From positions 7,059 to 71,058 of the forward strand of contig QWIH01000009.1 in assembly GCA_021405315.1 (NCBI GenBank): 64,000 bases of DNA. Reading direction: 5' to 3'. Shown piece by piece: positions 10,645 to 64,000 of this stretch. A program made the translations under genes and the position numbers. Below the pieces are notes generated by a model. That model had not been told where the DNA came from and did not search any database. It saw only the letters and a program-made list of their open reading frames with translations. Numbering within the stretch: position 1 is the stretch's first letter; the number at the start of each line of letters is the position of its first letter. Origin of the DNA: Leptolyngbya sp. PLA1. Its GTDB lineage: Bacteria > Planctomycetota > Phycisphaerae > Phycisphaerales > UBA1924.

Positions 10645-10664
10645 GCGGCGGCTGCTCCGATTGG

Positions 10665-10670
10665 TACGAT
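10665..10670 (+). promoter_or_regulatory. -10-like hexamer TACGAT 6 nt before NUDIX ATG 10677
   Basis: TANNNT, no SD. Confidence 0.5.
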
Positions 10671-10676
10671 CCTGGC

Positions 10677-11231: not shown

Positions 11232-11301
11232 TCAAGTGAGACAGACTTTGCCTGACATCCCCGGGCCGACGTCGCACGAGCGTCGCTCGCTGGCTGAGTT
11301 G

Positions 11302-12222: not shown

Positions 12223-12273
12223 CATCCGCGGCCCCGCGACAGGACGCGGGGAACGCCGAAGCACGAGGGGCCC

Positions 12274-14606: not shown

Positions 14607-14672
14607 CCCGCCGTGCCTCCCGGGGCGTTCCCGGGGGTTGCCCAAGGTGATTTCTTCTTGAGACTGACACAC

Positions 14673-15125: not shown

Positions 15126-15200
15126 GCCCGCCGGAGAACGAGGATCGCCCCGAAACCTGACCAGGCCCCGCCAACCGCCATACGGCCCGCTGCTGCTGCC

Positions 15201-47741: not shown

Positions 47742-49211
47742 ATGAACGAACTTCGCCGGGTGTCCGTTGCGATCATTGGTCTCGCTTGGCTCGGCGCGCT
47801 GCTCGCGGGGTGTGCCGGGCCGCAGGGCAACGCCCTCGAGCACATGCAGAGCCGGGGCAGCGCGCCGCGCTCGCGGATCGATGCGATCCCCCTTGCGAAG
47901 GCCCAGGCGGGGAGCAGCGAAGCGGCGGTGGCCGGGTGGCGGACGGCGCTCGCGCGCCTTGCGTGGGACACGACGGAGGTGCCGTCGGTAAGGGCGGCGG
48001 CGATCAAGACGATCTTCGCGGAGCCGGAGAGCGAGTTCAGATCGGTCTGCCGGGAGACCGCGATGCGCGTGCTGCCGAAGGAGAGCTCACGCGAGGTTGT
48101 GCTCGCGCTCTGCGAGGTGGCCTCATCTCAGGGCTGGACGGACTTCGGCCCCGCGATCGTGAGGTCGTACTCGCGCAAGGTCCCGATGGTGCCCGAGGAA
48201 AAGGACCGCGCGGAACGTGCGGCGCTGGTCGCGCTCTTCCCGGGCCAGAGCGTGGAGGAGACGGCGTTCGGGGTGTTTCTGACCGGAGGCCCGATCGACA
48301 CCACGTCCACGGATCGGACCCGGCTGGATGCGTGGGATTTGCTGGCACGGCTCGATCCGTCCGGGGCGACGCACCGGAGGTTGATCGAGGGTGCATCTGT
48401 GGACGACGCGGATATCAGAGTCCTGAGGGCGGGGATGACCGACCTGCGGGCCGTTGCGCTCAGCGGAGAGCAGTTGCTCTGGCTCAAGCGACTGCGCGGG
48501 CCCGAGAATGCCGCGTGGTGGCAGGAGGTCAGCTCGGTGATCGCGGGGTTTGCCGACCCGGCCCCTCTGGGTCTGCGGCACGCGGAGCACCTGCGCTGGA
48601 CCGCCGCCAACCGGCCGGAGCGGCTGACGCAGACGCGCGAGGCGCTGCTGGCGGAGCTGTCGGGGAGGATCGCGGGTCGGCAACACTTCGAGCGCACCGC
48701 GGAGGCACAGAACACCAGGCCCCGCGAGGCGCTGAGCCAGGTCGGGCCGCGGCTTTCACGGGCGGACCTGATCAGCATCCTCGCGCTCGACGACGCCCTG
48801 CAGGCGCCCGGGCTCGGCGTGCACCTGTGCGAGCAGGTGAGGCTCGACCGGAAGGACCAGACAACGGAGTACGGCGGGCTGGTGCGGCTGGAGGCGAACG
48901 GTCCGCGGACCGACGCCGCGTGGGCGCTGTTCCCTCCCCGGCCCGGGGAGAGGCAAGGGGACAACCGTTTCATCGCGTCGCCGGACATGATCGTGCGGAG
49001 CGACACCGCCGCCGCCCATTTCCACTTCCACGGGCAGACCTGGCGGAATCACGACCTCGCGGGTCCGAGCCCGGCGGACCTCGAGTACGCCGCCAGATTC
49101 GGACGGGCGTGTCTGGTAATGACGACCGTTGGTGAGTGCGTGCTCTCGGTAGACTATTACCAGCCCGATGGGGTGGTTGTGGACCTCGGGACGATCTCAG
49201 GCGTCAAATGA
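47742..49211 (+). CDS. Lipoprotein (489 aa) with helical N-terminal region and C-terminal JAB/MPN-like metal motif
   Basis: Lipobox LLAG-C; TEYGGLV ... HFHFH-x-GPSPAD. Confidence 0.7.
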   Translation: MNELRRVSVAIIGLAWLGALLAGCAGPQGNALEHMQSRGSAPRSRIDAIPLAKAQAGSSEAAVAGWRTALARLAWDTTEVPSVRAAAIKTIFAEPESEFRSVCRETAMRVLPKESSREVVLALCEVASSQGWTDFGPAIVRSYSRKVPMVPEEKDRAERAALVALFPGQSVEETAFGVFLTGGPIDTTSTDRTRLDAWDLLARLDPSGATHRRLIEGASVDDADIRVLRAGMTDLRAVALSGEQLLWLKRLRGPENAAWWQEVSSVIAGFADPAPLGLRHAEHLRWTAANRPERLTQTREALLAELSGRIAGRQHFERTAEAQNTRPREALSQVGPRLSRADLISILALDDALQAPGLGVHLCEQVRLDRKDQTTEYGGLVRLEANGPRTDAAWALFPPRPGERQGDNRFIASPDMIVRSDTAAAHFHFHGQTWRNHDLAGPSPADLEYAARFGRACLVMTTVGECVLSVDYYQPDGVVVDLGTISGVK

Positions 49212-49355: not shown

Positions 49356-50654
49356 ATGCTGACCAAGTTTCTGGGCGGATTCTCTCGGATGGCGGCCGCG
49401 CTCGCCCTCGTTGCCGGGCTTGCGCTGGTGGCGTCTGACGCCCTGGCTCAGCCGGGCGCGGGCGGCGGGGGCGGACCCGGTGGGCGGATGGGCGGCGGGC
49501 CGGGCGGCGGCATGGGGGGCCGGATGGGCGACTTCAACGCGCCCGCCATCGAACGCCGCAACATGGACAAGTACGCGAGCGTGCTCGCGCTGACGCCCGA
49601 CCAGAAGGAGGTCGCGGAGTCGCTGCTCGAGGGCTACGAGCAGCAGACGCGTGAGCTGCGCGAGTCGATGCGTGCGAAGATGGAAGAGATCCGCGACAAG
49701 GCCCGCGAGACCGGCGACATGTCGGTCTGGGGCGAGATGCGCGAGATCGGCGAGAAGGCTCAGGCCGACCGCAAGAAGCTCGACGCGTCGCTGATGACGG
49801 ACCTGAGGAGCATCCTCTCCCCCGAGCAGGAGGCACGCTGGCCCGTCTTCGAGCGTGCGCAGCGGCGCGACCAGAGCCTCCGTCGAGGGTTCGTGAGCGG
49901 CGAGCGTGTCAACCTCTTCGAACTTGTCGAGCGAGCGGAGCTCGAGCCCGCGCAGAAGCAGGCGCTGGACCCCCTCCTGGGCGAGTACGACGTCGAGCTG
50001 GATCGCGCCCTTCAGGCCCGCAACGCTGCGTACGAGGCCGCGTTTGGTCAGTTCGGGCGCATGTTCGGCGGCGAGGGCGGGCCCGATATGGAGAAGGCGC
50101 AGGAGGCGATGGACAAGGGGCGTGAGGCGGCGTTCCGGGTTCGCGACGTGAACCGGCGCTTCGCCCGGCAGATCGGCGAGGCGCTTCCCGAGGACAAGCG
50201 GGCGGGCTTTGAGAGCGCGTTCCTCCGAGAGAGCTTCCCCGAGGTCTACCGGCCGACACAGGCGAGCCGATCGATCGAGGCGGCGCTGGGCCTGGCAGAC
50301 CTGACCACCGAGCAGAAGGAGAGCGTGAGCGCCCTGCGGGAACGCTACACGCGCTCGCTCGAGACCGCCAACGCCAAGATGCGCGAGGCCATCGAGAAGC
50401 AGGAGAGCGAGGCGACGATCGCGGGCATGATGCAGAGGTTCGGCCGGGGTGGACAGGGCGAGGACCCGATGGCCGACATCCGACGCGAGCGCCGCGAGCT
50501 GGGCGACAGCACGGTGGAGTCCCTCAAGAAGATCCTGACCCCTGAGCAGGCGGAGCGGCTCCCGACTGCGGAAGACCGGGGAGGCCAGAATCGCGGGGGT
50601 GAAGATGCACCCGCGCCCCGCCGCCGCAACCGCCCGGCGCAGGACCCCACCTGA
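49356..50654 (+). CDS. Secreted Spy/CpxP-like (LTxxQ-repeat) helical protein, paralog 1 (432 aa)
   Basis: Signal peptide ALA-Q; LTPDQ, LSPEQ, LTTEQ, LTPEQ; Met/Glu/Arg-rich. Confidence 0.72.
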   Translation: MLTKFLGGFSRMAAALALVAGLALVASDALAQPGAGGGGGPGGRMGGGPGGGMGGRMGDFNAPAIERRNMDKYASVLALTPDQKEVAESLLEGYEQQTRELRESMRAKMEEIRDKARETGDMSVWGEMREIGEKAQADRKKLDASLMTDLRSILSPEQEARWPVFERAQRRDQSLRRGFVSGERVNLFELVERAELEPAQKQALDPLLGEYDVELDRALQARNAAYEAAFGQFGRMFGGEGGPDMEKAQEAMDKGREAAFRVRDVNRRFARQIGEALPEDKRAGFESAFLRESFPEVYRPTQASRSIEAALGLADLTTEQKESVSALRERYTRSLETANAKMREAIEKQESEATIAGMMQRFGRGGQGEDPMADIRRERRELGDSTVESLKKILTPEQAERLPTAEDRGGQNRGGEDAPAPRRRNRPAQDPT

Positions 50655-50784
50655 GGCCCTTCGGGCTTCTGACGGGTTCTGCCGGGTCGGACATCTAGAG
50701 TGAGCACAGCCAGCGCCCCGGCGTCAGACACCCGGGGCGTTGTGCTGCGCCGGTCGTGCCGGCGAGATCAACCGGAGCTCTGCC

Positions 50785-52044
50785 ATGAAGAACAGTCACG
50801 GTGTTCGGATCGGGGTTGGCCTGACCGCGATGGTGCTGATGGTGCTCGCCGGAGCGCCGGAGCGGGCGGCGGCGCAGCAGACGATGTCCGTGCGGGCGAC
50901 GAGCCCATTGGGGGGTCGGGGTGGGGGCCAGGTGACGAGGCGGAGCATGGAGCGCTACGCGGACATTCTGGGCCTTGACCAGACTCAGCGCGAAACCGCG
51001 ATGGCCATTTTCGAGGGGTACAGCGCGACCTGCGACCAGGCTCGCAAGGCGCAGCGGGACGCCATGGAGGAACTCCGGCGGAGCGCGGAGGACACGGGCG
51101 ACCACGGCGTCTTCATGGAGAAGATGCCCGCGATCCAGAAGAAGAGCCGAGAGGCGACCCAGGGCGCGGAGAAGTCCCTCTTCGCCGACCTGAGGTCTCT
51201 CCTCACGAGCGAGCAGGAGGCGCGTTGGGCCCGCGTCGAGCGGATGCGCCGGCGCGAAACCGGGCTGAGGGGCGGGCTGAGCGGGGAGAGCCTGGACCTC
51301 GCGGACGTGGTGCACACCATGAAGCTGCCCGCCGAGCCGGCCCAGCTCGTGGCGCCGATGATCGAGGACTACGAGTCCGCGATGGACGTGCACCTCAGGG
51401 CGAAGGAAGCGGCCCAGTCGGAGGCGCCCGCCTTCGAGCCCGGGAAGCCGATGGACGTCGAGGCGATGCAGAAGCAGATGGAGGCCTCGCGCCAGATGGG
51501 TGAGAAGATCGTGCAGCTCAACGCGACGGCGGCGGAGAAGATCAAGGCCGCGCTCCCCGAGGATCTTCAGCAGAAGTTCGCGGACGAGGTGAGGCGTCGT
51601 TCGTTCCCGACGGTGTACCGGGAGAGCCGCGTGGCGAAGGACCTCGACGCGGCGCTGGGCCTTGGCGATCTCGACGAGTCCCAGCGGGAGCGGCTGAAGG
51701 AGATCAAGGCCGCGTACGCGCGAGAGATCGGCCCGCTGAACGATCGCTGGGCGGACGCGATCCGGGAGGCCGAGCGGAGCGGTCAGGAGGGGGGAATGGC
51801 CCTGGGCGGGGGCGGGTTCATCTCCATGCGAATGGGCGAGGAGCCCGAGGCGCTGCGCGAGGCCCGAAAGGCGCGGCGCGAGATGGACGAGAAGGCCCGC
51901 GAAAGGCTGAAGTCTGTTCTCAGGCCTGAGCAGCAGGAGAAGCTGCCCAAGGCTTCCCCCGGCGGCGACGAGGAGATGGGCGACGGGGAGCCCAAGATGA
52001 TGTTCGTGGTCGAGGAACGCTCCGACGCCCCGCCTCCCAAGTAG
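50785..52044 (+). CDS. Secreted Spy/CpxP-like helical protein, paralog 2 (419 aa)
   Basis: Signal peptide AAA-Q; LDQTQ, LTSEQ, LDESQ, LRPEQ; shares DLRSLL..EQ.A.W..VER.RRR and FP.VYR blocks with neighbours. Confidence 0.72.
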   Translation: MKNSHGVRIGVGLTAMVLMVLAGAPERAAAQQTMSVRATSPLGGRGGGQVTRRSMERYADILGLDQTQRETAMAIFEGYSATCDQARKAQRDAMEELRRSAEDTGDHGVFMEKMPAIQKKSREATQGAEKSLFADLRSLLTSEQEARWARVERMRRRETGLRGGLSGESLDLADVVHTMKLPAEPAQLVAPMIEDYESAMDVHLRAKEAAQSEAPAFEPGKPMDVEAMQKQMEASRQMGEKIVQLNATAAEKIKAALPEDLQQKFADEVRRRSFPTVYRESRVAKDLDAALGLGDLDESQRERLKEIKAAYAREIGPLNDRWADAIREAERSGQEGGMALGGGGFISMRMGEEPEALREARKARREMDEKARERLKSVLRPEQQEKLPKASPGGDEEMGDGEPKMMFVVEERSDAPPPK

Positions 52045-52139
52045 TGCAACATCGCGGGAGCCGGGGTGTATAGAGAGCGGAGGCGGCGGGGGTCGTACAC
52101 TCCGGCGGGTCGGGTTCGTTGCAATGAAAGGGGTTGCGC

Positions 52140-53381
52140 ATGTGGAGCCGCGTGAAGAAGGCCGGCCGCGTGGTGCTGGCGGTGCTTTCGCTTGGTGTCG
52201 CCGTGCATGTCGGGGGTCCGGAGGCCCGCGCGCAGGGGTTTGGCGGGCCCGACATGATGGGGATGATGTCCATCAGCAAGCGGTCGCTGGACTCGTACGC
52301 GGCGAAGCTGAAGTTCACCCCGGAGCAGGCCGAGGCGCTCAAGGCGCTGCACGAGGGCTATCGGTCGGAGGCGAAGAAGGCCGCCGACGAGTTCGGCAAG
52401 GCGCAGCGGGAGGCGATGCGAGAGGCGCAGGAGGAGCAGGACTGGGGCGCCATGGGCAAGGTCATGGCCCAGGAGGGCGCGAAACTGCAGGAGCGGATGC
52501 AGGCGGCGGAGAAGCAGTTCCTCGATGACTTCCGGTCGCTGTGCACGGAGGATCAGGCCGCGAAGTGGCCGTCCGTGGAGCGGGCCCGGCGTCGTGACCA
52601 GTTCATGCGCGTCGGCATGGTGAGCGGCGCCGGGGTGGACGTGCTGGCGGCGGCCGACCGGACAAAGACGGCCATGACCGGCAACGAGGCGTACGACGCC
52701 GTCGCCGATCAGTACGAGCTTGAGATCGACCGCAAGCTCACGGAGTTCAAGCGGGTCCAGGAGGAGATGCAGGCGGCCCAGATGAAGCAGGCGGAGGAGG
52801 GCTTTGACTTCAGCAAGATGCAGGAGATGATGGCCAAGGCCCAGGAGATGCTCAAGCCGATCGTCGAGATCTCCACGTCCCTCCGGGACACCAACCGCGA
52901 GTACGCCCGCAAGCTGGCTGACCTCATGCCCGAGGCGGACCGGGCCAAGTTCAACGCCGAGATCGAACTGCGGACGCACCCGCGGGTCTACCGCGTATCC
53001 CACACTGCCAAGTCCCTGGATGCCGCGCTCAAGCTGAAGGACCTCACCCCCGAGCAGACGGAGCAGGTCCGTGGGCTCCGCGATTCCTACGCCGCGGACG
53101 CCCGAGGGCTCAACGCCCGCTGGGCGAGCGCGATCGAGGAGCAGGAAGCCAAGAACGGCGGTACGTTCGGCGTGATGACCATGGGATTCATGGGGGGTGG
53201 CAACGAGGGCGAAGACCCCGTCCGCGACGCCCGCAAGGCGCGGCGCGATCTGGACAAGCAGGTCCTTGAACGCCTCAAGGGGGTGCTCACAGAGGCACAG
53301 CGCGAGCAACTGCCTGCTCGCGACGAGGAGCCGTTCAACCCCATGGCGGACTTCATGGTCATCGAGCCGGACGCAGAATGA
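52140..53381 (+). CDS. Secreted Spy/CpxP-like helical protein, paralog 3 (413 aa)
   Basis: Signal peptide ARA-Q; FTPEQ, CTEDQ, LTPEQ, LTEAQ; same shared blocks. Confidence 0.72.
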   Translation: MWSRVKKAGRVVLAVLSLGVAVHVGGPEARAQGFGGPDMMGMMSISKRSLDSYAAKLKFTPEQAEALKALHEGYRSEAKKAADEFGKAQREAMREAQEEQDWGAMGKVMAQEGAKLQERMQAAEKQFLDDFRSLCTEDQAAKWPSVERARRRDQFMRVGMVSGAGVDVLAAADRTKTAMTGNEAYDAVADQYELEIDRKLTEFKRVQEEMQAAQMKQAEEGFDFSKMQEMMAKAQEMLKPIVEISTSLRDTNREYARKLADLMPEADRAKFNAEIELRTHPRVYRVSHTAKSLDAALKLKDLTPEQTEQVRGLRDSYAADARGLNARWASAIEEQEAKNGGTFGVMTMGFMGGGNEGEDPVRDARKARRDLDKQVLERLKGVLTEAQREQLPARDEEPFNPMADFMVIEPDAE

Positions 53382-53448
53382 CCGAGAATCACGGCAAGGA
53401 ACGTGCGGCTGCGGCGTTCGGCGCGTGCGGCAAGGAGATGTAGGACGC

Positions 53449-55029
53449 ATGATCGAGACCCGCCAGGAACCCCGGGCGCCCGACGCGGGGCCACCGACGC
53501 TCGCCAAGAAGCCCGACATCGATCTGGCGGTCGCCACTCTCATCGCGCCGGAGCACGCGGTGCGTCTGCGGGCGATCCCTTTCGCGAGGGAGGCCGGCCG
53601 GGTGCGCATCGCCATGCTCGACCCGGCGGACCTTGCCGCGTCTGATGAACTCGCGGTGCTCTGCTCGGCGCCGGTCTCGCGCATCGGGGCGACGCGGGAT
53701 GTCTTCGCCGAGATGCTCCGCGAGGGGTATGGGATCACGGCGGCGCAGATGGCCGCACGACTCGGCGGCGGGGCCGGCGACGATGAACTCGCGAGCAACC
53801 TCGAAGCGATCGAGGCGGATGACCTGCATCGGATGGCCGAGCAGCCCAGCCTGATCAACCTCGTCAATCTGATCATCCTGGAGGGCATCCGCGCCCGCGC
53901 GAGCGATGTGCACCTCGAACCGTTCGAGAAGAAGCTCGCGGTCAAGTATCGAATCGACGGCATGCTGGTGGAGCAGGAGCCGCCGCCGAAGCAGCTCCAG
54001 CCGGCCATCACCAGCCGCGTGAAGATCATGGCGGGGATGAACATCGCCGAGCGGTTTGCGCCGCAGGACGGGCATATCTCGCTCCGGTTCGAGGGGCGCA
54101 AGATCGACATCCGCGTGTCGACGGTCCCCACGCTGTACGGCGAGAGCGTGGTGATGCGAATCCTGGACAAGGAAGCGATCCAGCTCGATCTGCAGGCACT
54201 CGGCATGGGCCAGGCGGACCGGGACGGGATGCAGAAGCTGATCGACCTGCCCCACGGCATGGTGCTGGTGACGGGGCCGACGGGGAGCGGCAAGACGACG
54301 ACTCTCTACGCGGCGCTCACCAAGCTCTACGACCCGTCGCTGAAGATCATCACGATCGAGGACCCGGTGGAGTACGAGCTCTCGGGCGTGAACCAGATCC
54401 CGGTGAACCCCAAGCGTGGCGTGTCGTTCGCCGACGGGCTGCGGAGCATCCTCCGTCAGGACCCGGATGTGATCATGGTCGGCGAGATTCGCGACTACGA
54501 AACCGCCGAGATCAGCGTGCGGGCCGCCCTGACGGGCCACCTGCTCTTCAGCACGCTCCACACGAACAACGCGATCTCCGCCGCGGGACGCCTGATGGAC
54601 ATGGGCGTGGAGCCCTTCCTGCTGAGCAGCGTGCTCGAGGGCGTGCTGGCGCAGCGGCTGGGGCGGCGGTTGTGCCAGACGTGCAAGAAGCGGGCCCCCA
54701 TCGCGGAGGCGCTGGCCCACCGGCTCGCCCCGGCGGAGGCCGCCATGTTCCCGGGCGGGCAGGGGTTCGTCGGGGCGGGGTGCGAGGCGTGCGGCGGGCG
54801 CGGGATGAAGGGCCGGGTCGGGTTCTTTGAGCTCATCCTCACCACGCCGGCCATGCGTTCGGGTATCTCCTCGCGCATGGGGATGCAGGAACTGGCGCGC
54901 ACCGCGCCGTTCACCACGATGCGGCGCGACGGAATCCTGAAGGCGGCGGCCGGGTTCACGACGGTGGACGAGGTGCTCCGCGCCACGCAGGACGCCGAGG
55001 AAGCCGTGGACGCCGGGAGGGCGGGCTGA
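53449..55029 (+). CDS. gspE: Type II secretion ATPase GspE/PulE (526 aa)
   Basis: RASDVHLEP, GPTGSGKTTT, IITIEDPVE, LRQDPDVIMVGEIRD, TGHL..STLH, CxxC...CxxC. Confidence 0.95.
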   Translation: MIETRQEPRAPDAGPPTLAKKPDIDLAVATLIAPEHAVRLRAIPFAREAGRVRIAMLDPADLAASDELAVLCSAPVSRIGATRDVFAEMLREGYGITAAQMAARLGGGAGDDELASNLEAIEADDLHRMAEQPSLINLVNLIILEGIRARASDVHLEPFEKKLAVKYRIDGMLVEQEPPPKQLQPAITSRVKIMAGMNIAERFAPQDGHISLRFEGRKIDIRVSTVPTLYGESVVMRILDKEAIQLDLQALGMGQADRDGMQKLIDLPHGMVLVTGPTGSGKTTTLYAALTKLYDPSLKIITIEDPVEYELSGVNQIPVNPKRGVSFADGLRSILRQDPDVIMVGEIRDYETAEISVRAALTGHLLFSTLHTNNAISAAGRLMDMGVEPFLLSSVLEGVLAQRLGRRLCQTCKKRAPIAEALAHRLAPAEAAMFPGGQGFVGAGCEACGGRGMKGRVGFFELILTTPAMRSGISSRMGMQELARTAPFTTMRRDGILKAAAGFTTVDEVLRATQDAEEAVDAGRAG

Positions 55030-55032
55030 CCT

Positions 55033-56262
55033 ATGGCGAGTTTCGTCTACCGAACCGCCGCCATGGGCGCACGAGCCGCCGGAGCGACGATCGAGGCCCC
55101 CGACCGGGCCGCGGCGGTCCGCGAACTGGTCCGCCGGGGGGAGACTCCCCTCTCGGTCGATCCGGTCACGCAGCCGGGTGCGGCCGAGGTTCCCGGGGCG
55201 GTGTCGCGCTCGTGGCTGCCGGTGATGTCGCGCGTTGAGATGGCCTCGATGATCCGCGAGCTGTCGGTCGCGCTCACGGCGGGGCTGCCTCTGGTGCAGG
55301 CGCTCCGGACCATCGCGAGGCAGGGGCGGTCCGCGGGGCAGAAGGAGATGCTGCGATCCGTCATCGAGCAGGTGGAGGCCGGGAAGAGCCTGGCGGACGC
55401 GATGGCGGCGTGGGGAGCGCCGTTCCAGGACCTCACCATCAACCTCACGAGGGCGGGCGAGGCCTCGGGCAAGCTGGCGGAGGTGCTGAGCCACGCGGCG
55501 GAGCTGCTGGACAAGGACGTGAAGCTGCGTCGCTCGCTGCTGGGCGCGACGCTGTACCCGATGATCATCCTGGCGCTGGTGGTCATCGCGATCATCGTGG
55601 TCGTGACGGTGATCGTGCCCGGCATCCTGAAGCAGCTCTCAGGGGCCGCGACCACGCTGCCCTGGCCGACCCAGATCGTGAAGGGCTTTTCCGATTTCTT
55701 CGCGGGGTACTGGTACGTCATCATCCCGGGGGTTCTGGTGGCGGTGCTGGCGGCGCATCGGTACTACCGAACCCCCGAGGGTCGCATGGCTGTGGACGAG
55801 AAGCTGCTGAAGCTCCCGATCATCGGGAGGCTGCTCCGCGACGTCGCGGTCGCGCGGTTCACGCGGACGCTGGGCACGCTGACGAGCTCGGGCGTCCCGA
55901 TCGTGCAGGCGTTGCGGATCACGCGGGGCACACTGGGCAACGTCGCGATGGAGCGCGTCATCGACCAGGTCGTGGAGCAGGTCTCCGCCGGCAAGACCAT
56001 CGCCGATCCCATGGAGCAGAGCGGCTACTTCCCTCCCATGCTCGTGCAGATCGTGAACCTCGGCGAGCGGTCGGGACGGCTCGACGAGATGCTCATGAAC
56101 GCCTCCCGCGCGTTCGAGGAGAAGACCGAGCAGAGCATCAAGCTCTTCACGACCGCGCTCCCGCCCATCCTCGTTGTCATGCTCGCCTGCGTCGTCGGCT
56201 TTGTCGTGCTCGCCATTCTCATGGCGCTGCTTCAGGTCCAGGATGCGGCGATGGCCGGCTGA
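55033..56262 (+). CDS. gspF: Type II secretion inner-membrane platform protein GspF
   Basis: AGLPLVQAL, GEASGKL, ATLYPMII, FTRTLGTL..SGVPI, GERSGRLDEML. Confidence 0.95.
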   Translation: MASFVYRTAAMGARAAGATIEAPDRAAAVRELVRRGETPLSVDPVTQPGAAEVPGAVSRSWLPVMSRVEMASMIRELSVALTAGLPLVQALRTIARQGRSAGQKEMLRSVIEQVEAGKSLADAMAAWGAPFQDLTINLTRAGEASGKLAEVLSHAAELLDKDVKLRRSLLGATLYPMIILALVVIAIIVVVTVIVPGILKQLSGAATTLPWPTQIVKGFSDFFAGYWYVIIPGVLVAVLAAHRYYRTPEGRMAVDEKLLKLPIIGRLLRDVAVARFTRTLGTLTSSGVPIVQALRITRGTLGNVAMERVIDQVVEQVSAGKTIADPMEQSGYFPPMLVQIVNLGERSGRLDEMLMNASRAFEEKTEQSIKLFTTALPPILVVMLACVVGFVVLAILMALLQVQDAAMAG

Positions 56263-56291: not shown

Positions 56292-56735
56292 ATGAAGCCC
56301 AGGTTCAACCGCCCCAACCACGCCCGGCGCGCCTTCACGATCATCGAGGTCATCGTCATCGTCGTCATCCTGGGCGTGCTGGCGGCGCTCATCGCGCCGC
56401 GTCTCCTCGGGCGCATCGGCCAGAGCCGCCAGGCCGTTGCCCGCGCGAACGCCGAGTCGCTCGCCACCCAGATGAAGCTCTTCATCGCCGATCACTACAT
56501 GCCGGACTCCGGCGCGTCGATCGAGATTCTCTTCGTGAAGCCCGCCAACATCGAGTCCGACAAGTGGCACCCCTATGTCGACAACCTCGACGCCCTCAAG
56601 GACCCCTGGGGCAACCTCTTTGCCCTTCGCATCCCCGGCGAGGTCAACGTGGACTTCGACATCGTCAGCTACGGTGCCGACGGTCAGCTCGGTGGCGAGG
56701 GTGAAGCCGCAGACATCGTGAACGGAAGGAAGTAG
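56292..56735 (+). CDS. gspG: Major pseudopilin GspG (147 aa)
   Basis: RRA|FTIIEVIVIVVILGVLAALIAP; KWHPY, DPWGN, SYGADGQLGGEG. Confidence 0.93.
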   Translation: MKPRFNRPNHARRAFTIIEVIVIVVILGVLAALIAPRLLGRIGQSRQAVARANAESLATQMKLFIADHYMPDSGASIEILFVKPANIESDKWHPYVDNLDALKDPWGNLFALRIPGEVNVDFDIVSYGADGQLGGEGEAADIVNGRK

Positions 56736-56757
56736 TCCCCGCCCGGCAGGATTCGTG

Positions 56758-57351
56758 ATGCAAGCGACCCCCATGCCCGCCCGACGACGCGCCTTCTCGA
56801 TGGTCGAGATGGTCGTCGTCGTCGTGATCCTGGGCGTGCTCGCGATGGCGGTGGTGCCCCGCATGGTTTCAACCCGGGGCAGGGAGGTGCAGGCGAGCGC
56901 GCTCCGCCTCGCGGATCTCCTCACGGTCGCCGCCAGACGCGACTCGCTCCTCAGCCAGCGGATCGCCGTCGAGTACGACGCCCGCGACGGGCAACTCCGC
57001 CTCATGACGCTGTCCGTGCCCGAGCCTGAGTCGGGCGCGGCGGCGGTCTGGAAGGCCGACGCCCTCGCCCCCGCGGCGGACATCGGGAACGCCCGCGTGC
57101 TCGAGGCATGGATGGACGGGTCTTCACTCGACCCCAAGCAGTGGCGTGTGGAACTGCCCCAGAACCAGATGAGGCCGGCGATCTCGATGCTCCTCTCCGA
57201 CGCCAGCGGGCAGAACCTCTGGCGTGTCGACCTCGCCCCCCGCGCGACGCGGGCGGTGGTGACGGCCGGGCAGCAGCCCGCGCGCGACGGCGTGGAGGGT
57301 TCGGAGTTCATCGATCTCGACGCGAGCGGGCAGGGGGTGACCCCGTGGTAG
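56758..57351 (+). CDS. gspH: Minor pseudopilin, GspH-like
   Basis: RRA|FSMVEMVVVVVILGVLA; position after gspG. Confidence 0.75.
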   Translation: MQATPMPARRRAFSMVEMVVVVVILGVLAMAVVPRMVSTRGREVQASALRLADLLTVAARRDSLLSQRIAVEYDARDGQLRLMTLSVPEPESGAAAVWKADALAPAADIGNARVLEAWMDGSSLDPKQWRVELPQNQMRPAISMLLSDASGQNLWRVDLAPRATRAVVTAGQQPARDGVEGSEFIDLDASGQGVTPW

Positions 57352-57806
57352 CCCGGCCTCGGCTCGTGTCTCGGCGCGGGGCGCTCCTCGTGGATGTGCT
57401 CGTGGGCGTCGTCATGCTCGGGGTGGCGCTGGCGGTCATGATCGGGCTTTCCGCGCGGGCGGTCTCCGCCCAGCGGGCCGGGGAGAACCTCCAGATCGCC
57501 GCGATGCTCATCGATGAGCGGCTCAACATGGTGCTCGCCAAGGGGCCGGAGGATTACGCGACGGCCTTCGGGGCGCTCGACGGGCCGTGTGACGAGCCGT
57601 ATGCGCGCTTCCGGTACTCGCTCAGCATCCAGGAAGGCTCGGCGGGTCAGCCCTTCCGCGTGTCGTGCACCGTGACGTGGACCGAGAGCGGCAAGCCCCG
57701 CAGCGAGACCGTCCACACCCTGATCGCCCCGAGGCTCGGCGACGAGCCGGACCCCGACCGCAAGCCCCCGGAGACCACCGACCGCCTCGCGGGGGTGCTG
57801 CCATGA
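57345..57806 (+). CDS. gspI: Minor pseudopilin, GspI-like (153 aa)
   Basis: RRG|ALLVDVLVGVVMLGVALAVM (Asp at +5); V.CTVTWTE; start uncertain (GTG 57345). Confidence 0.7.
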   Translation: MVARPRLVSRRGALLVDVLVGVVMLGVALAVMIGLSARAVSAQRAGENLQIAAMLIDERLNMVLAKGPEDYATAFGALDGPCDEPYARFRYSLSIQEGSAGQPFRVSCTVTWTESGKPRSETVHTLIAPRLGDEPDPDRKPPETTDRLAGVLP

Positions 57807-58492
57807 GGCGCCGCGCATTCACCCTGGTGGAACTCATCGTGACGTCCGTCATCGGCGTGCTCGTCGCCGGCGCGGTGGTCACCAGCGTCTCCAGCCTCCA
57901 GCGGGCGAGGGCGTCGTCGTTCGCGCGTCAACAGGCCTTCGGCCGGAGCGACGCCGCCGCGTCTCGCATCGCCCTGGACCTGTCCAATGTGGTGAGGCAC
58001 TATGAGCTGACGTTCGCCAGGGTGCTCGTGGTCAATGGCGGGGCGCCGGGGGCTGAGACCGACGAGCTGCTCATCCTCGCGAACGCCGCCAGACCCGTCC
58101 GCGGGGAGGACGGAATCGCCGAGGGCCCCGAGGTCGAGGTGCAGTACCGCATCCGGCCGGGCGCGGCGGTCGGGGCTGCCTCCCTCTGGCGGCGCACCGA
58201 TCCGGCGTTCGATCTCTATCTCGATGCCGGCGGCGTGGCCTCCACCGTCGCTTCCGGCGTCACGTCGCTCTCCATCCAGGCCTTCGACGGCTCGGCGTGG
58301 GTCGACTCGTGGGACTCAGACTCAGACGGCATGCCTCACGCGATTCGCGTGGCGGTCGCCGCGGCCTCGGACGACAGGCGGACCACGTCCGTCGCGCGCC
58401 GGCTGGTCGCCATCGACCGCGTGCCGATCCCGCTCGAATCAACCGACGAGGACGCGAGCGGCGGCACCACACCCGCGGGAGGCGCCCGATGA
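57803..58492 (+). CDS. gspJ: Minor pseudopilin, GspJ-like (229 aa)
   Basis: RRA|FTLVELIV; RIALDLSN; FDGSAWVDSWDS; MPHAIRV. Confidence 0.8.
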   Translation: MRRRAFTLVELIVTSVIGVLVAGAVVTSVSSLQRARASSFARQQAFGRSDAAASRIALDLSNVVRHYELTFARVLVVNGGAPGAETDELLILANAARPVRGEDGIAEGPEVEVQYRIRPGAAVGAASLWRRTDPAFDLYLDAGGVASTVASGVTSLSIQAFDGSAWVDSWDSDSDGMPHAIRVAVAAASDDRRTTSVARRLVAIDRVPIPLESTDEDASGGTTPAGGAR

Positions 58493-59820
58493 GCCGCCCC
58501 CGACACACCCGGCGGGGCTTCGCGACCCTGATGGTCTTCGCCGTCATCGCGCTGGCGGCGATCATCATCGGCATGATCCAGACCAGCGCCTTCGGGCAGG
58601 CGTCGGCGGGTCGCGAGGCGCTGGCCCGAGTTCGGGCCCACTGGGCCGCCCGCGCGGGGCTGGAGTCCATGATCGCGACGCTGGAGTGGAGCACCGAGAA
58701 TCCGGACCTCGGCAGCGCGTTCACCCTGATGGATGATTTCGTCGCCGTCTCAACGGGCGACCTGGACGGCGCCACGTACCGCATCGCGACCTTCGACGAA
58801 TCCCGCGAGGTGCTCGGGCCGGCCGATGCGCACTCCAGACTGAACATCAACCGGCTCACCAGGGACCAACTCCTCACCATCGAGCCCCTCATGTCGGAGG
58901 ACGTTGCGGACTCAATCCTCGACTGGATCGACTCCGACGATGACACGAACCCCCTGGGGGCGGAGATCGGCTATTACGCGGGGTTGCCCTACCCCTACGA
59001 GCCCCGGAATGCCCCCATGCGCAGCATCCTCGAACTGGAGCTGGTCGCGGGGGTGGACGCGCGCGACGTCCGCGGCGAGGACTGGAATCTCAACGGTCTG
59101 CTGGACCCCAACGAGGACGACGGGGACGAGAGCTGGCCCCCCGACAACGCGGACGGCATTCTCGATCGCGCGTGGTCGGGCGTCCTCACGGCGGGCAGCC
59201 TCGACGGCGCCCTCGCGCCCTCCGGACAGCCAAAGATCGATCTCCAGAGCGCGAACGCCGGGGAGATCGTGCAGCGCGTCAAGACCGACAGCAACCAGGC
59301 GCAGGCCATTGTTGATTACATCGCGAGCAACCCCAACGCCACGATGCGGGACTTCATCGTGCGCGACCTGCGTCAGCTCGCTCAGCAGGCCGGGGGGGAC
59401 GGCGGGCAGACTGTGCGCATCGAGAACCTCACGAGGGAGCAACTCGGCCTGCTGCTCGACGAGGCGACCGTCGGCCCGGCGGAGTCCGGGGCCTACATCC
59501 CGGGCAAGCTGAACATCAACACCTGCCCGGCCAAGACGCTTGAGTACCTCCCCCAGATCACGCCCGAGGTGGCTGATGCCATCATCGCCGAGCGCTCCGC
59601 AAGGCCGGACGGGTTCGTGAGCCTCGCGGACCTCCTCAGCGTGCCGGGGATCGGCAGGCGCCAGCTCGCCGCGATCTATGAGTTGCTGTGCGTACGGTCC
59701 AACGTGTACGAGGTGACCTGCCGCGGGCGTGACTCGAGGACGGGCATCGAGTCGGAGATTCACGCGGTGCTGGACCGTTCGACCTTGCCGGTAGTGCTTC
59801 AGGAGGTGAGCGTGCGATGA
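58489..59820 (+). CDS. gspK: Minor pseudopilin GspK (443 aa)
   Basis: RRG|FATLMVF; SRLNIN, ILDWIDSDD, PRNAPM.S..EL.LV.G, LNINT, HhH LLSVPGIG. Confidence 0.88.
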   Translation: MSRPRHTRRGFATLMVFAVIALAAIIIGMIQTSAFGQASAGREALARVRAHWAARAGLESMIATLEWSTENPDLGSAFTLMDDFVAVSTGDLDGATYRIATFDESREVLGPADAHSRLNINRLTRDQLLTIEPLMSEDVADSILDWIDSDDDTNPLGAEIGYYAGLPYPYEPRNAPMRSILELELVAGVDARDVRGEDWNLNGLLDPNEDDGDESWPPDNADGILDRAWSGVLTAGSLDGALAPSGQPKIDLQSANAGEIVQRVKTDSNQAQAIVDYIASNPNATMRDFIVRDLRQLAQQAGGDGGQTVRIENLTREQLGLLLDEATVGPAESGAYIPGKLNINTCPAKTLEYLPQITPEVADAIIAERSARPDGFVSLADLLSVPGIGRRQLAAIYELLCVRSNVYEVTCRGRDSRTGIESEIHAVLDRSTLPVVLQEVSVR

Positions 59821-61583
59821 GTCGATTGACCTCCCAAGGCCGGTCGAAGGAGGCCCGCGGGGCTGTCGCGGGCGTCCACGAGTCGGGTGACTCGGTGTGC
59901 GTCGTGGTGCTTTCCCCACAGGACGGGGCGCACAGTGTGTCGCAGTCGCGGACCATGACCCGGAGCGAGGCTGAATCGGTGCTCCCCGGTCTGCTCTCTG
60001 GTGTGACGCGCGTGGTGCGGGTCACTCCGCTGCGAGAGACGATCTGCCGCGTCACCACGCTGCCCCTGGCCGGCACCGCGGACAACGACGACCAGACCGC
60101 GGGCGCCGTCTCGCTGCTGGGTGAGGCGGAACTCCCCGCCGTGGCGCCGGCCCATCGGCGTGGGTCGGGGGTGGTTGGTCTGCCCATGGCGGACGGAGCC
60201 CGCCACGTGCTGGTGACCGCCTGGACCGGTGCCGCTCGCGACCCGCTCGGAGACATCGACGAGGTCTGGGCCACGCCCGTGGCCGCGCTCGCCGCCCTGT
60301 GGGCCGGCAAGGGGGAGCAGGCGGTGTATGTCGGTGAGCGTGAGGGCGGCGTCGCCGTGTTGGTGCAGTCCCCCTCGCGGCTGGTGGCCAGGGTCGTGCC
60401 CACGGAGGTCGGGCCCGCGGCGGGCGAGGAGGCGGAGCAGGTGCTGCGTGAAACCTGCGCCGCGGCTGAAGCGGAAGAGCCCGGGCGATTGCCCGGCGGT
60501 CGGGCGCTGGTGCTCAGCGATGCCGCCAGGGCCGGGCTGCGTGCCAAGGTCCGCGGCGTGCGCGATGAGGTGGCGTGGATGGACGCGCACGGTCTGGCGC
60601 TCGGTGCCGCGCTGCTCGCGCTCGAGCCGAGACGGTCGGTGAGCGCCCTCGCGGCGCTGAGGTCGGTTCCTCCCAGGGAGAAGTTGTCGATCCCCGCTCG
60701 CATCGGTACGGCGCTCACGAACCCCCGGACGGCATGGCTCACAGCCGGCGCCGCGGTCGTGCTGCTCCTTGGGGCGCCGATCGCGCTCGCCGCGGGCAGG
60801 GCGGCGATCCTCGGCGCGCGGGTGCGGGAGATCGAGAGCCGCGTGGGAGGGCAGAAGGAGCTGGAGGACCGCGCCGCCCTGTACCAGCAGCTCGAGGGCA
60901 GCCGGTGGCCTCTCACCAAGCTCCTGAATGATCTTTCCACGCTTGCGCCCGTGGGCGTGACCGTCAGCAGCATGCGCGTCAACGCCGGCCAGGACGTCAA
61001 CCTGCGGGGCACCGCCAAGTCGCAGGAGCTCGTCACACGCTTCGGGGCGGCGCTGGTGGATTCGAAGGTCTTTTCGAAATCGACGATCAACCGCACCGAG
61101 TTCAAGGACGGGGGCGTCGACTTCGACATGACGCTCCAGGTCGGTCAGCCGTTCGCCCGCGTCCCCGTCAGCAAGGATCCCGACGCCGCCAAGAACACGG
61201 ACTACGCCGCGCTGCCGCTCGCCAGACGGCTCTACGGCGAGGGAGCCAGCAACGACTCGGTGGCGAGCGCGGATCGGCCCTCTCGCTCGCGCCGCGGTGG
61301 CGCGACCTCCGGATCCCCGGGCGGATCGGCGTCCGGCAGCCCGACGGCGGCCGCGACCGAGCGACGGCCCTCGCCCAGCGAGGTCGTCCCCCCGCCGGTG
61401 TCCGATGCAGACATCGCGAAGATGGACAGGGCCACCGCGATGTCGGAGTGGGTGAAGCGAAAGACCTACCCGCAGAAGAACCCCAAGCTGGACGCCGTCA
61501 CGAAGCAGCGTCTCGAGGAGGAGTGGCCCAAGATCAAAGCCCGATTCGACCAGTTGAAGTCGACCGAGGGAGGTGGCTCGTGA
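59817..61583 (+). CDS. gspL: GspL / PilM-PilN-like assembly platform protein (588 aa)
   Basis: Degenerate actin-like N-terminus, single TM, coiled coil, PilN-like VNLRGTAKSQELVTRF; position in the operon. Confidence 0.65.
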   Translation: MSRLTSQGRSKEARGAVAGVHESGDSVCVVVLSPQDGAHSVSQSRTMTRSEAESVLPGLLSGVTRVVRVTPLRETICRVTTLPLAGTADNDDQTAGAVSLLGEAELPAVAPAHRRGSGVVGLPMADGARHVLVTAWTGAARDPLGDIDEVWATPVAALAALWAGKGEQAVYVGEREGGVAVLVQSPSRLVARVVPTEVGPAAGEEAEQVLRETCAAAEAEEPGRLPGGRALVLSDAARAGLRAKVRGVRDEVAWMDAHGLALGAALLALEPRRSVSALAALRSVPPREKLSIPARIGTALTNPRTAWLTAGAAVVLLLGAPIALAAGRAAILGARVREIESRVGGQKELEDRAALYQQLEGSRWPLTKLLNDLSTLAPVGVTVSSMRVNAGQDVNLRGTAKSQELVTRFGAALVDSKVFSKSTINRTEFKDGGVDFDMTLQVGQPFARVPVSKDPDAAKNTDYAALPLARRLYGEGASNDSVASADRPSRSRRGGATSGSPGGSASGSPTAAATERRPSPSEVVPPPVSDADIAKMDRATAMSEWVKRKTYPQKNPKLDAVTKQRLEEEWPKIKARFDQLKSTEGGGS

Positions 61584-62188
61584 ACGGGTTCAAGCAGACC
61601 TGGCAGCGACTGCCCCGCGCGGGGCGCTGGCTCGGGGTGTTCCTGTTGTTCCTCGCGCTGTACTTCCTCGTCGTGGAGCCCGGCGTAGACGTCTACCTGA
61701 AGTACGCGGCGCTGGGCGACGTGCACCGCGCCACCCTCGCGAAGTACGCCGAGGCGAAGGACGAGGTACGCCGCGCCGACGATGTCGTGAAGCTCGGCGT
61801 GGCCCACTTCGGCACGGTCGAGTTCCCGGGCGACTACAACCAGCGCACCCGTGAGCTGAACACCGCGATCGACGGCATCCTCGCGACCAACGGGGTGGAG
61901 GGGTACACCGGCACCACGCGCACCGTGGCGATGGGGCAGGGACTCCTGACCAAGCGCCTGCCCGAGGATTCACGCGTCGAGCGGCTCACCCGGACCATCG
62001 ACTTCACGGGGCACCCCGCGGCGGTCGCGGGTGTCCTCGCGGACCTCGAACAGACCCCCGTGGTCTCGACCATCTCCTCGGTCCAGCTTCGCCAGGTGGA
62101 AGGCCGCGACGGCGAGTCCGGCCGGCTTCTCAACGCCATCATCACCATCGAAACCTGGGTGACAGCCAAGAAGGGAACCAGCCGGTGA
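61580..62188 (+). CDS. gspM: GspM / PilO-like protein (202 aa)
   Basis: WQRLP...TM, coiled coil, ferredoxin-like IDFTGHPAAVAGVLADLE. Confidence 0.65.
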   Translation: MNGFKQTWQRLPRAGRWLGVFLLFLALYFLVVEPGVDVYLKYAALGDVHRATLAKYAEAKDEVRRADDVVKLGVAHFGTVEFPGDYNQRTRELNTAIDGILATNGVEGYTGTTRTVAMGQGLLTKRLPEDSRVERLTRTIDFTGHPAAVAGVLADLEQTPVVSTISSVQLRQVEGRDGESGRLLNAIITIETWVTAKKGTSR

Positions 62189-62820
62189 CAGCACCCACGG
62201 ACATGAGGACGGTCTGGCGCGGCCTGGGGACCCCGGGCAAGGTCGCCGCGGCGGTCGCGTGCGTGGCGGGGCTCGTTGTGCTGCCGCAGGTGTGGTCGTT
62301 CCTGGATGCGATCGTCAGGCCCAGGCCCGAAGTGCCTGCCCGCGTGGCCAGCGAGGCCTCCGAGCAACGCGCCGAGCAGTTCGAGCTGTACATCGCGCAG
62401 GTTGACGGCCGGTCGCTCTTTCATGTGCCCGCCGCGCCGGGTACGCAGGCGGCCCCGCCCCCGCCCCCCGGTCCGCCCGCGCCGCCACCGCCTCCGTCGA
62501 GTTACGGCGGGCCGGCGATCATCGCCATGGTCAACGGCGAGGTCTGGTTCGCGGATGGCAAGCGTCTGAGGCCGGGAGATGCCGAGTCCGAGGGCGTCTC
62601 GGTTTCGTCCCTGAATGCGCCGTGGGAAGCGACGCTGAAATGGCGTGGGGTGGAGTTCAAGGTCCCGCTCTTCGCGAGGGAGAACCTCGTCTGGGCTCCG
62701 CAGCCGGAGTCCAAGAAGGAGCCCCCGCCCCAGCCACCCCCGGCGGACCCGCCAAATCCCGGCTCCGCGGGTGATGGTGGGGCCGGCGGCGAGCCCACGG
62801 GTAATGGCCTAGGCGGTTGA
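62185..62820 (+). CDS. Single-TM Pro-rich protein with GspC/PilP HR-like beta domain
   Basis: TM, poly-Pro linker, EVWFADGKRLRPGD...GVSV...EATLKWRG; lies just before the secretin. Confidence 0.5.
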   Translation: MTAPTDMRTVWRGLGTPGKVAAAVACVAGLVVLPQVWSFLDAIVRPRPEVPARVASEASEQRAEQFELYIAQVDGRSLFHVPAAPGTQAAPPPPPGPPAPPPPPSSYGGPAIIAMVNGEVWFADGKRLRPGDAESEGVSVSSLNAPWEATLKWRGVEFKVPLFARENLVWAPQPESKKEPPPQPPPADPPNPGSAGDGGAGGEPTGNGLGG

Positions 62821-62873: not shown

Positions 62874-64000
62874 ATGAACAAGCACGCACAGTTTCGCGTG
62901 ATGACCGCCTCGGCCCTCGTGGCGCTCGCGGGCCTGGGGCTCTCTGCCCCGGCTCAGGACGCCCAGCCCACCGGGCCCTCCGGCCGCCGCCCCGTGGAGG
63001 GCGAGCCCACGCCCCTGGCCTTCAAGCAGGTCACGGTTGAGAAGCTGATCGACTTCATCGTCCAGGCGACGGGGAAGGTGGTCATCCCGCAGCAGGACGT
63101 GATGACCCGCAAGATCACGGTCCTCAACGACCGGCCCATCCCGCGGGAGCAGGCGCTGGACCTGGTGTTTCAGGCGTTGGCGCAGAACGGCGTGGGTGTG
63201 GTCGAGAACGAGCACGTCATCACGCTCCGCGCGATCGAGGAGGTCTCCAAGCACGACGTGCCGGTGATCCCGCCCAACGAGAGCGTGCTCAACCGCCGCG
63301 ACAGCGGCACCCTGGTGCAGAAGGTCTTTGCCCTGCGCAACTCCACGGCCAAGGCGCTGGGAGACGTCATCAAGGACGCGGTGCCGGACTACGCGAAGCT
63401 CAACATCGACGAGGAGTCCAATCAGGTCGCCATCATCGGCCCCATCTCGCTGCAGCAGCGCATGGAGCGGCTGATCACGAGCCTCGATCGTCCCTCTTCC
63501 GCGGCGCTCCAGACCGAGACCTTCAGGCTGCGCTACGCGGACGCCGAGGCGGTGAAGGCCAACATCGAGGAACTCTTCCAGGGCGGCTCCGCCGCCGCGG
63601 GGGGCAACAACCGGCGAGCCAACCAGAACAACCAGAACAACCAGGGTCCGGGCGGCTTCTTCAGGTTCGCGGGGGTTTCAGGCGGCGGCGGCGAGGGCGG
63701 CACCTCCGCCAGCACCGAGGTTCGCGTCACCGCCAACGCGCAGCAGAACGCGGTCACGGTCGTCGCGGACCCGACGATCCTCGACCAGATCCGCGCGCAG
63801 ATCAACGAGTACTGGGACAAGCAACTCCCGGAAGAGGCCGTTGTCCCCAAGGTCTACGACCTCAAGAACAGCGATCCCATCAAGATCCGCGACGCGCTGG
63901 AGGGGATGTTCGGGCGTGCCAACCCGCAGGCGGGGCGCACGAACCAGGGCGGGGGTGGGCAGCAGGGCGGGAACACCGGGTCCACGTCGACCTCCCAGGG
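62874..64000 (+). CDS. gspD: Secretin GspD, N-terminal part (3' truncated; missing from the ORF track because no stop is in the window)
   Basis: ATG 62874 after AAGGA; my translation: signal peptide, LAFKQVTVEKLIDFIVQATGKVVIP (N0), KVFALRNSTAKAL, TFRLRYADAEAV, KVYDLKNSDP repeats; frame open to 64000. Confidence 0.9.
   Translation, partial: MNKHAQFRVMTASALVALAGLGLSAPAQDAQPTGPSGRRPVEGEPTPLAFKQVTVEKLIDFIVQATGKVVIPQQDVMTRKITVLNDRPIPREQALDLVFQALAQNGVGVVENEHVITLRAIEEVSKHDVPVIPPNESVLNRRDSGTLVQKVFALRNSTAKALGDVIKDAVPDYAKLNIDEESNQVAIIGPISLQQRMERLITSLDRPSSAALQTETFRLRYADAEAVKANIEELFQGGSAAAGGNNRRANQNNQNNQGPGGFFRFAGVSGGGGEGGTSASTEVRVTANAQQNAVTVVADPTILDQIRAQINEYWDKQLPEEAVVPKVYDLKNSDPIKIRDALEGMFGRANPQAGRTNQGGGGQQGGNTGSTSTSQ

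Follow-up and report, generated by a model that had tools for sequence, protein, structure and literature searches.

Exported three-module LTXXQ-fold proteins encoded with a type II secretion system in Phycisphaerae

Introduction

What do three consecutive genes for exported, helical proteins do at the head of a gene cluster for a type II secretion system (T2SS)? The question arises in a 64,000-nucleotide (nt) stretch of planctomycete DNA (contig QWIH01000009.1 of assembly GCA_021405315.1, positions 7,059 to 71,058; "the window" below), where three paralogous genes, which we call A, B and C, precede gspE, the gene for the T2SS ATPase. The T2SS accessory factors known so far are lipoprotein pilotins, GspAB and client-specific foldases. 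Spy, CpxP and ZraP are periplasmic ATP-independent chaperones, and a Cpx adaptor, of Enterobacteria. We know of no report that places a soluble Spy-type chaperone in a gsp operon, and our literature searches found none; nor did they turn up an account of LTXXQ or DUF4890 proteins from T2SS clusters or from Phycisphaerae, and we found no annotation specific to this family.

We conclude, with a probability of roughly 0.9, that A, B and C belong to an exported, T2SS-coupled family of three-module LTXXQ-fold proteins whose genes belong to the gsp operon in one lineage of T2SSs. They are probably an undescribed accessory part of that T2SS machine. Below we present the features of the proteins, their fold and their linkage to gspE, and then weigh what they might do.

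A, B and C are old paralogs with signal peptides

All three genes lie on the + strand of a region with about 69% G+C, and the G+C content at third codon positions of their open reading frames (ORFs) is of the coding type. Paralog A (49356–50654) encodes 432 amino acids (aa), with signal peptide cleavage expected at ALA/QPG, after which come a linker rich in Gly and Met, the three LTXXQ-type modules and a basic, Gly/Arg-rich C-terminal tail. Paralog B (50785–52044) encodes 419 aa, with cleavage at AAA/QQ, three modules and an acidic/Gly linker that ends in KMMFVVEER. A mechanical ORF list starts B at a TTG at 50740 (434 aa); we took the ATG at 50785 as its start because this start yields a proper signal peptide. 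Paralog C (52134–53381, 415 aa, cleavage at ARA/QG) has three modules and then NPMADFM and an acidic end, and it is the gene that adjoins gspE. As the first, sequence-only reading of the window had it, 67 nt separate the two on the same strand: C stops at 53381 and the gspE ATG is at 53449. The spacer (53382–53448, + strand) carries a Shine-Dalgarno-like AAGGAG before that ATG and shows no significant hairpin (fold z-score −0.66).

The relationship among the three proteins is clear at the protein level, with 36% identity across 380 aa for A and C (BLASTP, E = 3e-61) and E = 2e-49 for B and C. Every one of the motif blocks from which a common block order had been proposed recurs in A, B and C, in identical order. 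The proposed divergence at the DNA level is likewise seen, as about 70% identity is reached only in stretches shorter than 100 nt; similarity so confined indicates that the copies are old and that no homogenisation has taken place.

Cleavage before Gln, which had been noticed in all three proteins, extends well beyond them. Across an alignment of 40 family members, conservation of 90% or more is seen for Ala at −3 and Gln at +1, and among C orthologs also for the Ala at −1; the AxA/Q pattern occurs in the majority of the distant single-copy relatives too. A Gln that is near-invariant at +1 would permit an N-terminal pyroglutamate. The proteins are also Met-rich, as described earlier: Met makes up 4.2–6.0% of the full-length chains, and the mature chains contain 16–23 Met, 0–3 His (none in A, three each in B and C) and 0–1 Cys. 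The mature A, B and C chains hold no further hydrophobic segment, with a maximum 19-residue hydropathy of at most 1.1.

Each chain is a threefold Spy/CnrX-type module

We cut the 40-sequence family alignment into thirds and compared the pieces profile against profile using hhalign. The N-terminal module matched the C-terminal one with a probability of 98% (E = 3.6e-14) and the middle one with 94% (E = 8.7e-8), and the middle and C-terminal modules matched each other with 83%. These matches indicate that each protein is an internal triplication of a module of about 110–125 residues. In C, the N-terminal module (residues 46–166; 52269–52631, + strand) consists of short-long-long-short helices with two LTXXQ-type motifs. 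The middle module (residues 167–290; 52632–53003, + strand) keeps the helix pattern, has LMPEADR in place of LTxxQ and ends in a conserved (F/H)PRVYR junction, and the C-terminal module (residues 291–400; 53004–53333, + strand) has the motifs LTPEQ and LTEAQ and a conserved ARKARRDLD helix. L[TSD]xxQ occurs at residues 79, 154, 316 and 394 of A and 64, 140, 296 and 379 of B, and the equivalent sites of C (61, 137, 304 and 385) read FTPEQ, CTEDQ, LTPEQ and LTEAQ. The N- and C-terminal modules thus have two motifs each, and those of the middle module are degenerate.

Pfam LTXXQ (PF07813) scores 27.0 bits in A, 22.0 in C and 18.5 in B, against a gathering cut-off of 24.3. It is the sole Pfam family that recurs, in 13 of the 40 family members at E ≤ 0.01 (best 9.2e-9); Metal_resist gives weak matches among A, B, C and family members. 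An NCBIfam search found no family for the three proteins, and neither Pfam nor NCBIfam revealed an enzymatic or adhesin domain in them. In a profile search of the PDB we obtained weak matches to Spy (E ~0.03).

The AlphaFold2 model of C, built from the alignment, is all-helical (pLDDT 87, pTM 0.82), as had been expected from the sequence, and shows the short-long-long-short pattern three times over. When this whole chain was compared with the PDB using Foldseek, no meaningful global neighbour was found, and matches to TGA and to designed bundles (TM-score ≤0.2) were rejected. Because the whole-chain comparison was informative only for local matches to CnrX and STV, we modelled the N-terminal module of C alone (pLDDT 91.6). 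The first 16 PDB matches of this module were all CnrXs or STV (TMq 0.50–0.68, TMt 0.56–0.73, probability 0.94–1.0), followed by NccX and then Spy (6owz_B, TMt 0.65), with TM-scores of 0.55–0.73 and probabilities of 0.8–1.0 overall. The best structural matches of a single module are CnrX/NccX and Salmonella STV (TMq 0.50–0.68, TMt 0.55–0.73, root-mean-square deviation 2.5–4.7 Å, probability 0.91–1.0). The idea that each chain holds a roughly tripled Spy-like module is borne out by the agreement of the hhalign matches, the four motifs, the LTXXQ signal and the module fold, which came out as Spy/CnrX type where a non-Spy fold had been the outcome to watch for.

The fold itself is already known, and A, B and C are members of the Spy/CpxP/CnrX superfamily. 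Like Spy, CpxP and ZraP, they are exported, soluble proteins with an all-helical, short-long-long-short module that carries two LTXXQ motifs, their surfaces are rich in basic residues and Met, and the Pfam and weak PDB-profile matches coincide in region. The sequence similarity is marginal, with A alone above the gathering score. Spy and CpxP are monomers of about 100–140 aa that dimerise, whereas A, B and C fuse three modules into 415–432 aa, their middle module lacks the motifs, and low-complexity N-terminal linkers and clade-specific tails have been added. The genetic setting differs as well, since Spy and CpxP belong to the Cpx/Bae stress regulon and A, B and C are encoded in a gsp operon.

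The family accompanies one GspE lineage

We queried GTDB, one genome per species, with C orthologs and obtained 45 loci, all labelled Phycisphaerales, Phycisphaeraceae, Phycisphaerae or Planctomycetota. At 39 of these, one to seven tandem copies lie directly 5' of gspE-gspF-gspG. The C homologs come from Phycisphaerae metagenome-assembled genomes (MAGs), and in three independent NCBI/JGI MAGs, with differing upstream neighbours, three paralogs of about 400 aa directly precede gspE. At the NCBI locus L001, the called C gene (10001–11233) overlaps the called start of gspE (11230).

The linkage holds in the opposite direction too. Among 80 metagenome loci chosen purely by GspE similarity, all 29 that combine a GspE of at least 59% identity with sufficient upstream sequence have the family directly before gspE, in one to three copies, and none of the loci with a GspE at most 54% identical does. 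Unlinked homologs had been named in the sequence-only reading as evidence that would count against a T2SS role; in both surveys, the homologs are tightly linked to gsp clusters.

Copy number in the 80-locus set follows GspE identity, with three copies at 75–77%, mostly two in between and one at 59–66%. The single-copy proteins are about 420–490 aa long and come from contigs with 45–69% G+C. In the GTDB loci, C orthologs are about 24–48% identical (89% in the near-identical MAG at L012) and GspE 63–82% (97% at L012). An exhaustive profile search collected 1,374 clusters (50% identity) at E ≤ 1e-30; the best 150 clusters all have 363–504 aa and matched over their whole length. The largest array we saw, in MAG Desfum bin_1 (L043, JACVCL010000021, 2744–12001), has seven tandem family genes before gspE, a local expansion beyond the usual one to three. 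A more distant lineage (L008, JGI 3300003968, 8396–16960) has two family genes and a 594-aa relative upstream of gspE, with a DinB-like gene after the second family gene and a gene for a SOUL haem-binding domain between the 594-aa relative and gspE.

In a neighbour-joining tree of 113 copies, three large clades correspond to the third (A), second (B) and first (C) position upstream of gspE. Because clade and gene position coincide, the order A-B-C-gspE appears to be ancient and stable; deeper branches of the tree carry two family genes. This bears on the suggestion that the three proteins form a heterotrimer. A three-protein complex is unlikely to have been the ancestral or an obligatory form, since many lineages have just one or two copies, and the suggestion survives for the three-copy lineages.

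The clades also differ in their C-terminal tails, which across the family are long, disordered and of low complexity. A-clade tails are basic and Gly/Arg-rich. B-clade tails run from an acidic/Gly linker into a hydrophobic triplet with Arg or Glu (MMIRR, VIIRR; MMFVVEER in the B of the window), and C-clade tails have NP(M/W)ADFM and then an acidic end, a motif that is kept among C orthologs. Short motifs conserved at chain ends, such as these, are usually docking peptides. Judged by their opposite charges, the A and C tails would allow the two proteins to bind each other.

Several observations weigh against our overall reading, a T2SS-coupled LTXXQ family with a periplasmic chaperone or adaptor role. 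Pfam membership, as far as the scores go, is borderline, A alone passing the LTXXQ gathering score, and the Foldseek E-values of the N-terminal module are not significant (0.12–1.4). Weak E-values are usual for helical hairpins in Foldseek; given these values, the fold call is based on TM-scores, on how exclusive the top matches are and on the agreement with the LTXXQ/Spy sequence signals. Unlinked copies occur at L044, L045, L047, L049, L055, L006 and L010. One to seven copies, together with unlinked ones, would be unusual for a fixed machine part and would fit cargo too, and the +1 Gln, with its possible pyroglutamate, and the position at the operon head recall secreted substrates such as SslE. 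To our knowledge, classical T2SSs work without such proteins.

Some of the unlinked copies are found in genomes whose gspE keeps only C, which indicates that B has moved there and has not been lost. In MAGs SZAS-3 and AAO_H125.45, gspE is preceded by a C-type gene only (L019, L023), and a B-clade copy lies elsewhere (L049, L045). The copy at L049 (4958–9089) is directly downstream of znuA-znuC-znuB on the same strand, and the one at L045 has a partial ORF upstream beside it. Since these two copies are near-identical, the adjacency to znu represents a single evolutionary event. Neither a 605-aa relative (L006) nor a tandem pair (L010) has gsp genes nearby.

Possible functions

Our tentative interpretation, to which we give slightly less than even odds, is that A, B and C work in the periplasm for this T2SS as dedicated, ATP-independent holdases or adaptors, as opposed to cargo or scaffold. 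The proteins, which are soluble and carry Sec signal peptides, would stay in the periplasm. Each is a single chain of three "hooked-hairpin" modules of the Spy/CpxP/CnrX type, whose Met- and Arg-rich helical surfaces could bind an unfolded or assembly-competent client, as Spy does. Candidate clients are secretin monomers, pseudopilins or an exoprotein, and the lineage-specific tails (basic in A, a hydrophobic strand in B, NPMADFM-acidic in C) may dock to each other or to components of the machine.

We favour this role because of the fold family, the Met- and Arg-rich composition and the strict linkage to gspE, and because the cluster offers no pilotin-like gene between A and gspD and its GspC-like protein has no PDZ domain. 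What is known of Spy points the same way: its Met residues matter for chaperone function (PMC12503329) and it protects outer-membrane proteins (PMC8546600). Among helical chaperones dedicated to a T2SS pathway, the closest precedent known is LipH/Lif, an all-helical periplasmic steric chaperone that a T2SS substrate needs before export (PMC13381987). LipH/Lif differs from A, B and C in its unrelated fold, its membrane anchor, its single copy and its gene, which accompanies the client lipase and not gsp genes.

It is tempting to take a further step and regard three-module LTXXQ proteins as a lineage-defining class of T2SS component that has taken over pilotin-like or GspC-PDZ-like tasks, which would be the escort of secretin, pseudopilins or substrates. 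Such a class of soluble periplasmic chaperones or adaptors, a possible but rather speculative proposal, would have started out as a single, self-associating protein and, through subfunctionalisation, become an A-B-C complex that is held together or docked by complementary tails.

Alternatively, A, B and C could be what the T2SS secretes. Dedicated cargo or surface-displayed proteins would use Sec for export, fold once in the periplasm and leave through GspD, to serve outside as, for example, extracellular chaperones, a coat or polyanion binders that use their Gly/Arg tails. We consider this less likely than the chaperone or adaptor role, though a serious contender. Genes at the operon head encode some T2SS substrates, SslE in the E. 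coli T2SS-beta operon being one, and the operon-encoded substrates SslE/YghJ and PulA (next to pulC-O) share with A, B and C both this position and a Sec signal peptide. The near-invariant +1 Gln is compatible with a protective N-terminal pyroglutamate, copy number runs from one to seven with extra unlinked copies, the tails are long, disordered and of low complexity, and the hairpins after A and B (z about −2, described below) could lift expression above that of the machine genes. Yet SslE/YghJ and PulA are large enzymes or lipoproteins from narrow lineages, whereas A, B and C have no catalytic domain, no enzymatic or adhesin domain was found in them, and the family adjoins gspE at 29 of 29 loci down to 59% GspE identity, where substrates are usually more variable. 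Their homology is to periplasmic chaperone and sensor families.

A structural part of the machine, in the form of a helical scaffold or spacer between the inner-membrane platform and the secretin, seems to us doubtful. It would explain the strict co-occurrence with one GspE lineage and the fixed gene position, the clade-specific terminal peptides resemble docking motifs, and a scaffold might compensate for an absent pilotin and a short GspC-like protein, a proposal that we hold equally doubtful. The GspC-like gene of the window (62185–62820, + strand) encodes 211 aa in which Pfam detects no PDZ domain, and there is no pilotin-like gene in the cluster between A and gspD, although a 489-aa lipoprotein encoded upstream of A might itself be a pilotin. 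A copy number of one to seven, and the location of B away from the cluster in some genomes, sit poorly with a scaffold. The family also evolves faster than core parts do (C orthologs about 24–48% identical, GspE 63–82%), and its fold family is known for transient binding of clients or ligands, not for building scaffolds. Neither GspC nor a pilotin is a good model for the three proteins. Pilotins and secretin helpers (GspS/PulS, AspS, PilF/PilW/Tgl) are accessory, sometimes lie in or next to gsp or pil operons, and several are all-helical; they escort the secretin across the periplasm, sit in the outer membrane as lipoproteins and have a lipobox Cys. A, B and C instead have signal-peptidase-I sites (AxA/Q), their mature chains contain 0–1 Cys, and they show neither a TPR nor a PulS fold. 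Unlike GspC, they have no transmembrane segment other than the signal peptide and match neither PDZ nor HR domains, and the GspC-like protein has a gene of its own. Of the defining features of CnrX sensors, pilotins and GspC, A, B and C lack every one.

A, B and C could also be LTXXQ proteins for general envelope stress or metal handling, comparable to ZraP, CnrX or Spy, that merely share the operon. This would account for the best fold matches (the Ni/Co sensors CnrX and NccX), the weak Metal_resist matches, the Met-rich composition and, in one lineage, the unlinked B-clade copy directly after znuA-znuC-znuB. We think this very unlikely. The ligands of CnrX-type sensors are absent (A has no His, B and C three each), the signal peptide is cleavable where CnrX and NccX have a membrane anchor, there is no CnrY/CnrH partner, and with three modules the identity to these sensors is 11–17%. 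No sigma/anti-sigma gene was identified among the gsp genes downstream of C, nor any extracytoplasmic function (ECF) sigma/anti-sigma or metal-efflux gene between the upstream lipoprotein gene and gspD. A two-way linkage to gspE is not expected of a general stress protein, and with the znu adjacency counting as one event and the ligands missing, we disfavour a metal sensor or metal-resistance protein.

A tripartite alpha-helical pore-forming toxin of the AhlABC, SmhABC or Nhe kind, which three tandem genes for helical paralogs of about 400 aa superficially resemble and whose AhlB and SmhB do appear in the whole-chain Foldseek list, is hardly credible and was rejected, given TM-scores of 0.10–0.14 at probabilities of 0.02–0.04, no hydrophobic head or beta-tongue (maximum hydropathy ≤1.1), chains made of three LTXXQ modules and not of a ClyA-type bundle, and many lineages with one copy only.

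What is new here is the single-chain triple-module architecture, the clade-specific tails and the membership in the gsp operon at every informative locus examined. The envelope biology of Planctomycetota is unusual and poorly studied, and a family of about 1,400 clusters that is tied to one GspE lineage provides a handle on how a secretion machine is assembled or fed in this phylum. For chaperone mechanism and engineering, interest would lie in a natural protein that joins several modules of a putative Spy/CpxP-like cradle in one chain. If A, B and C are cargo after all, wastewater and aquatic Phycisphaerae would have an abundant, conserved family of exoproteins whose fold resembles that of chaperones, and this too would be new. 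The importance of the family hinges on telling a chaperone or machine component from cargo.

Transcription

Metagenomes from bioreactors and activated sludge contain the genome, with 100% of sampled words in the bioreactor samples of the study to which run X1 belongs. Four metatranscriptome runs gave a few short contigs (about 200 nt, depth 2–5) over A, B, C and the gsp genes, which amounts to low-level transcription only. One RNA contig of 222 nt (53278–53499) runs from the last part of C through the spacer into the first part of gspE. It is compatible with co-transcription of C and gspE, as weak evidence in view of low coverage and possible DNA carry-over. On whether the paralogs are transcribed separately from gspE, a point that the sequence-only reading had raised, the data contribute this one bridging contig. 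In run X20, several contig "joints" (48934/58148, 54158/54472 and others) skip 49–9,213 nt in the gsp region; their short sides span only 21–29 nt, and they are probably chimeras from the assembly of related strains, not products of RNA processing.

The gsp cluster and neighbouring genes

Judged by their sequences, the genes downstream of C make up a complete T2SS cluster, all on the + strand. It begins with gspE (53449–55029; Pfam T2SSE, 1.4e-127, and MshEN), the platform protein gene gspF (55033–56262; T2SSF, 7.9e-60) and the major pseudopilin gene gspG (56292–56735; T2SSG and N_methyl). Three minor pseudopilins follow, an H-like (56755–57351), an I-like (57348–57806) and gspJ (57803–58492), with N_methyl/T2SSJ matches across the three; the I-like gene is assigned from its position only. 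Then come gspK (58489–59820; T2SSK_1st, T2SSK and HHH_3) and a gene for an L-like protein of 588 aa (59817–61583) with a PilN-type domain at residues 369–442. This protein also has a long Ser/Pro/Ala-rich C-terminal extension and is unusual among platform proteins of the L/M type; related loci keep its length (576–580 aa). The next two genes, for a 202-aa protein (61580–62188) and for the Pro-rich GspC-like protein, have no Pfam match, and their roles are predicted from position and synteny. The N-terminal part of the gspD secretin (62874–64000; Secretin_N, 5e-21, and GspD N0) runs past the end of the window.

Directly upstream of A, on the + strand, lies the gene for a predicted lipoprotein of 489 aa (47742–49211; LLAGC/AG). 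It is kept upstream of A at 14 of the 45 GTDB loci, at the NCBI locus L001 and at 4 metagenome loci, with 41–87% identity, and it is confined to two- or three-copy lineages, none having been seen in single-copy lineages. The protein has no significant Pfam or PDB match (UPF0758_N, E = 0.18); its C-terminus, HFHFHGQ…GPSPADL, looks JAB/RadC-like by eye, without a significant match. In three-copy lineages it may be a further member of the functional unit.

The spacers after A (50655–50784) and after B (52045–52133) contain stable GC-rich hairpins (z about −2), for example GCGCCCCGG…CCGGGGCG followed by TTGTG. A scan of the + strand for terminators and promoters gave nothing convincing. The hairpins are suggestive of partial terminators or RNA stabilisers that could give A and B a higher dose than the machine genes. 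Over the whole window (1–64000), GC skew is +0.25 to +0.30 in the first ~12 kb and falls steadily to about 0 beyond ~56 kb, although the genes remain mostly on the + strand.

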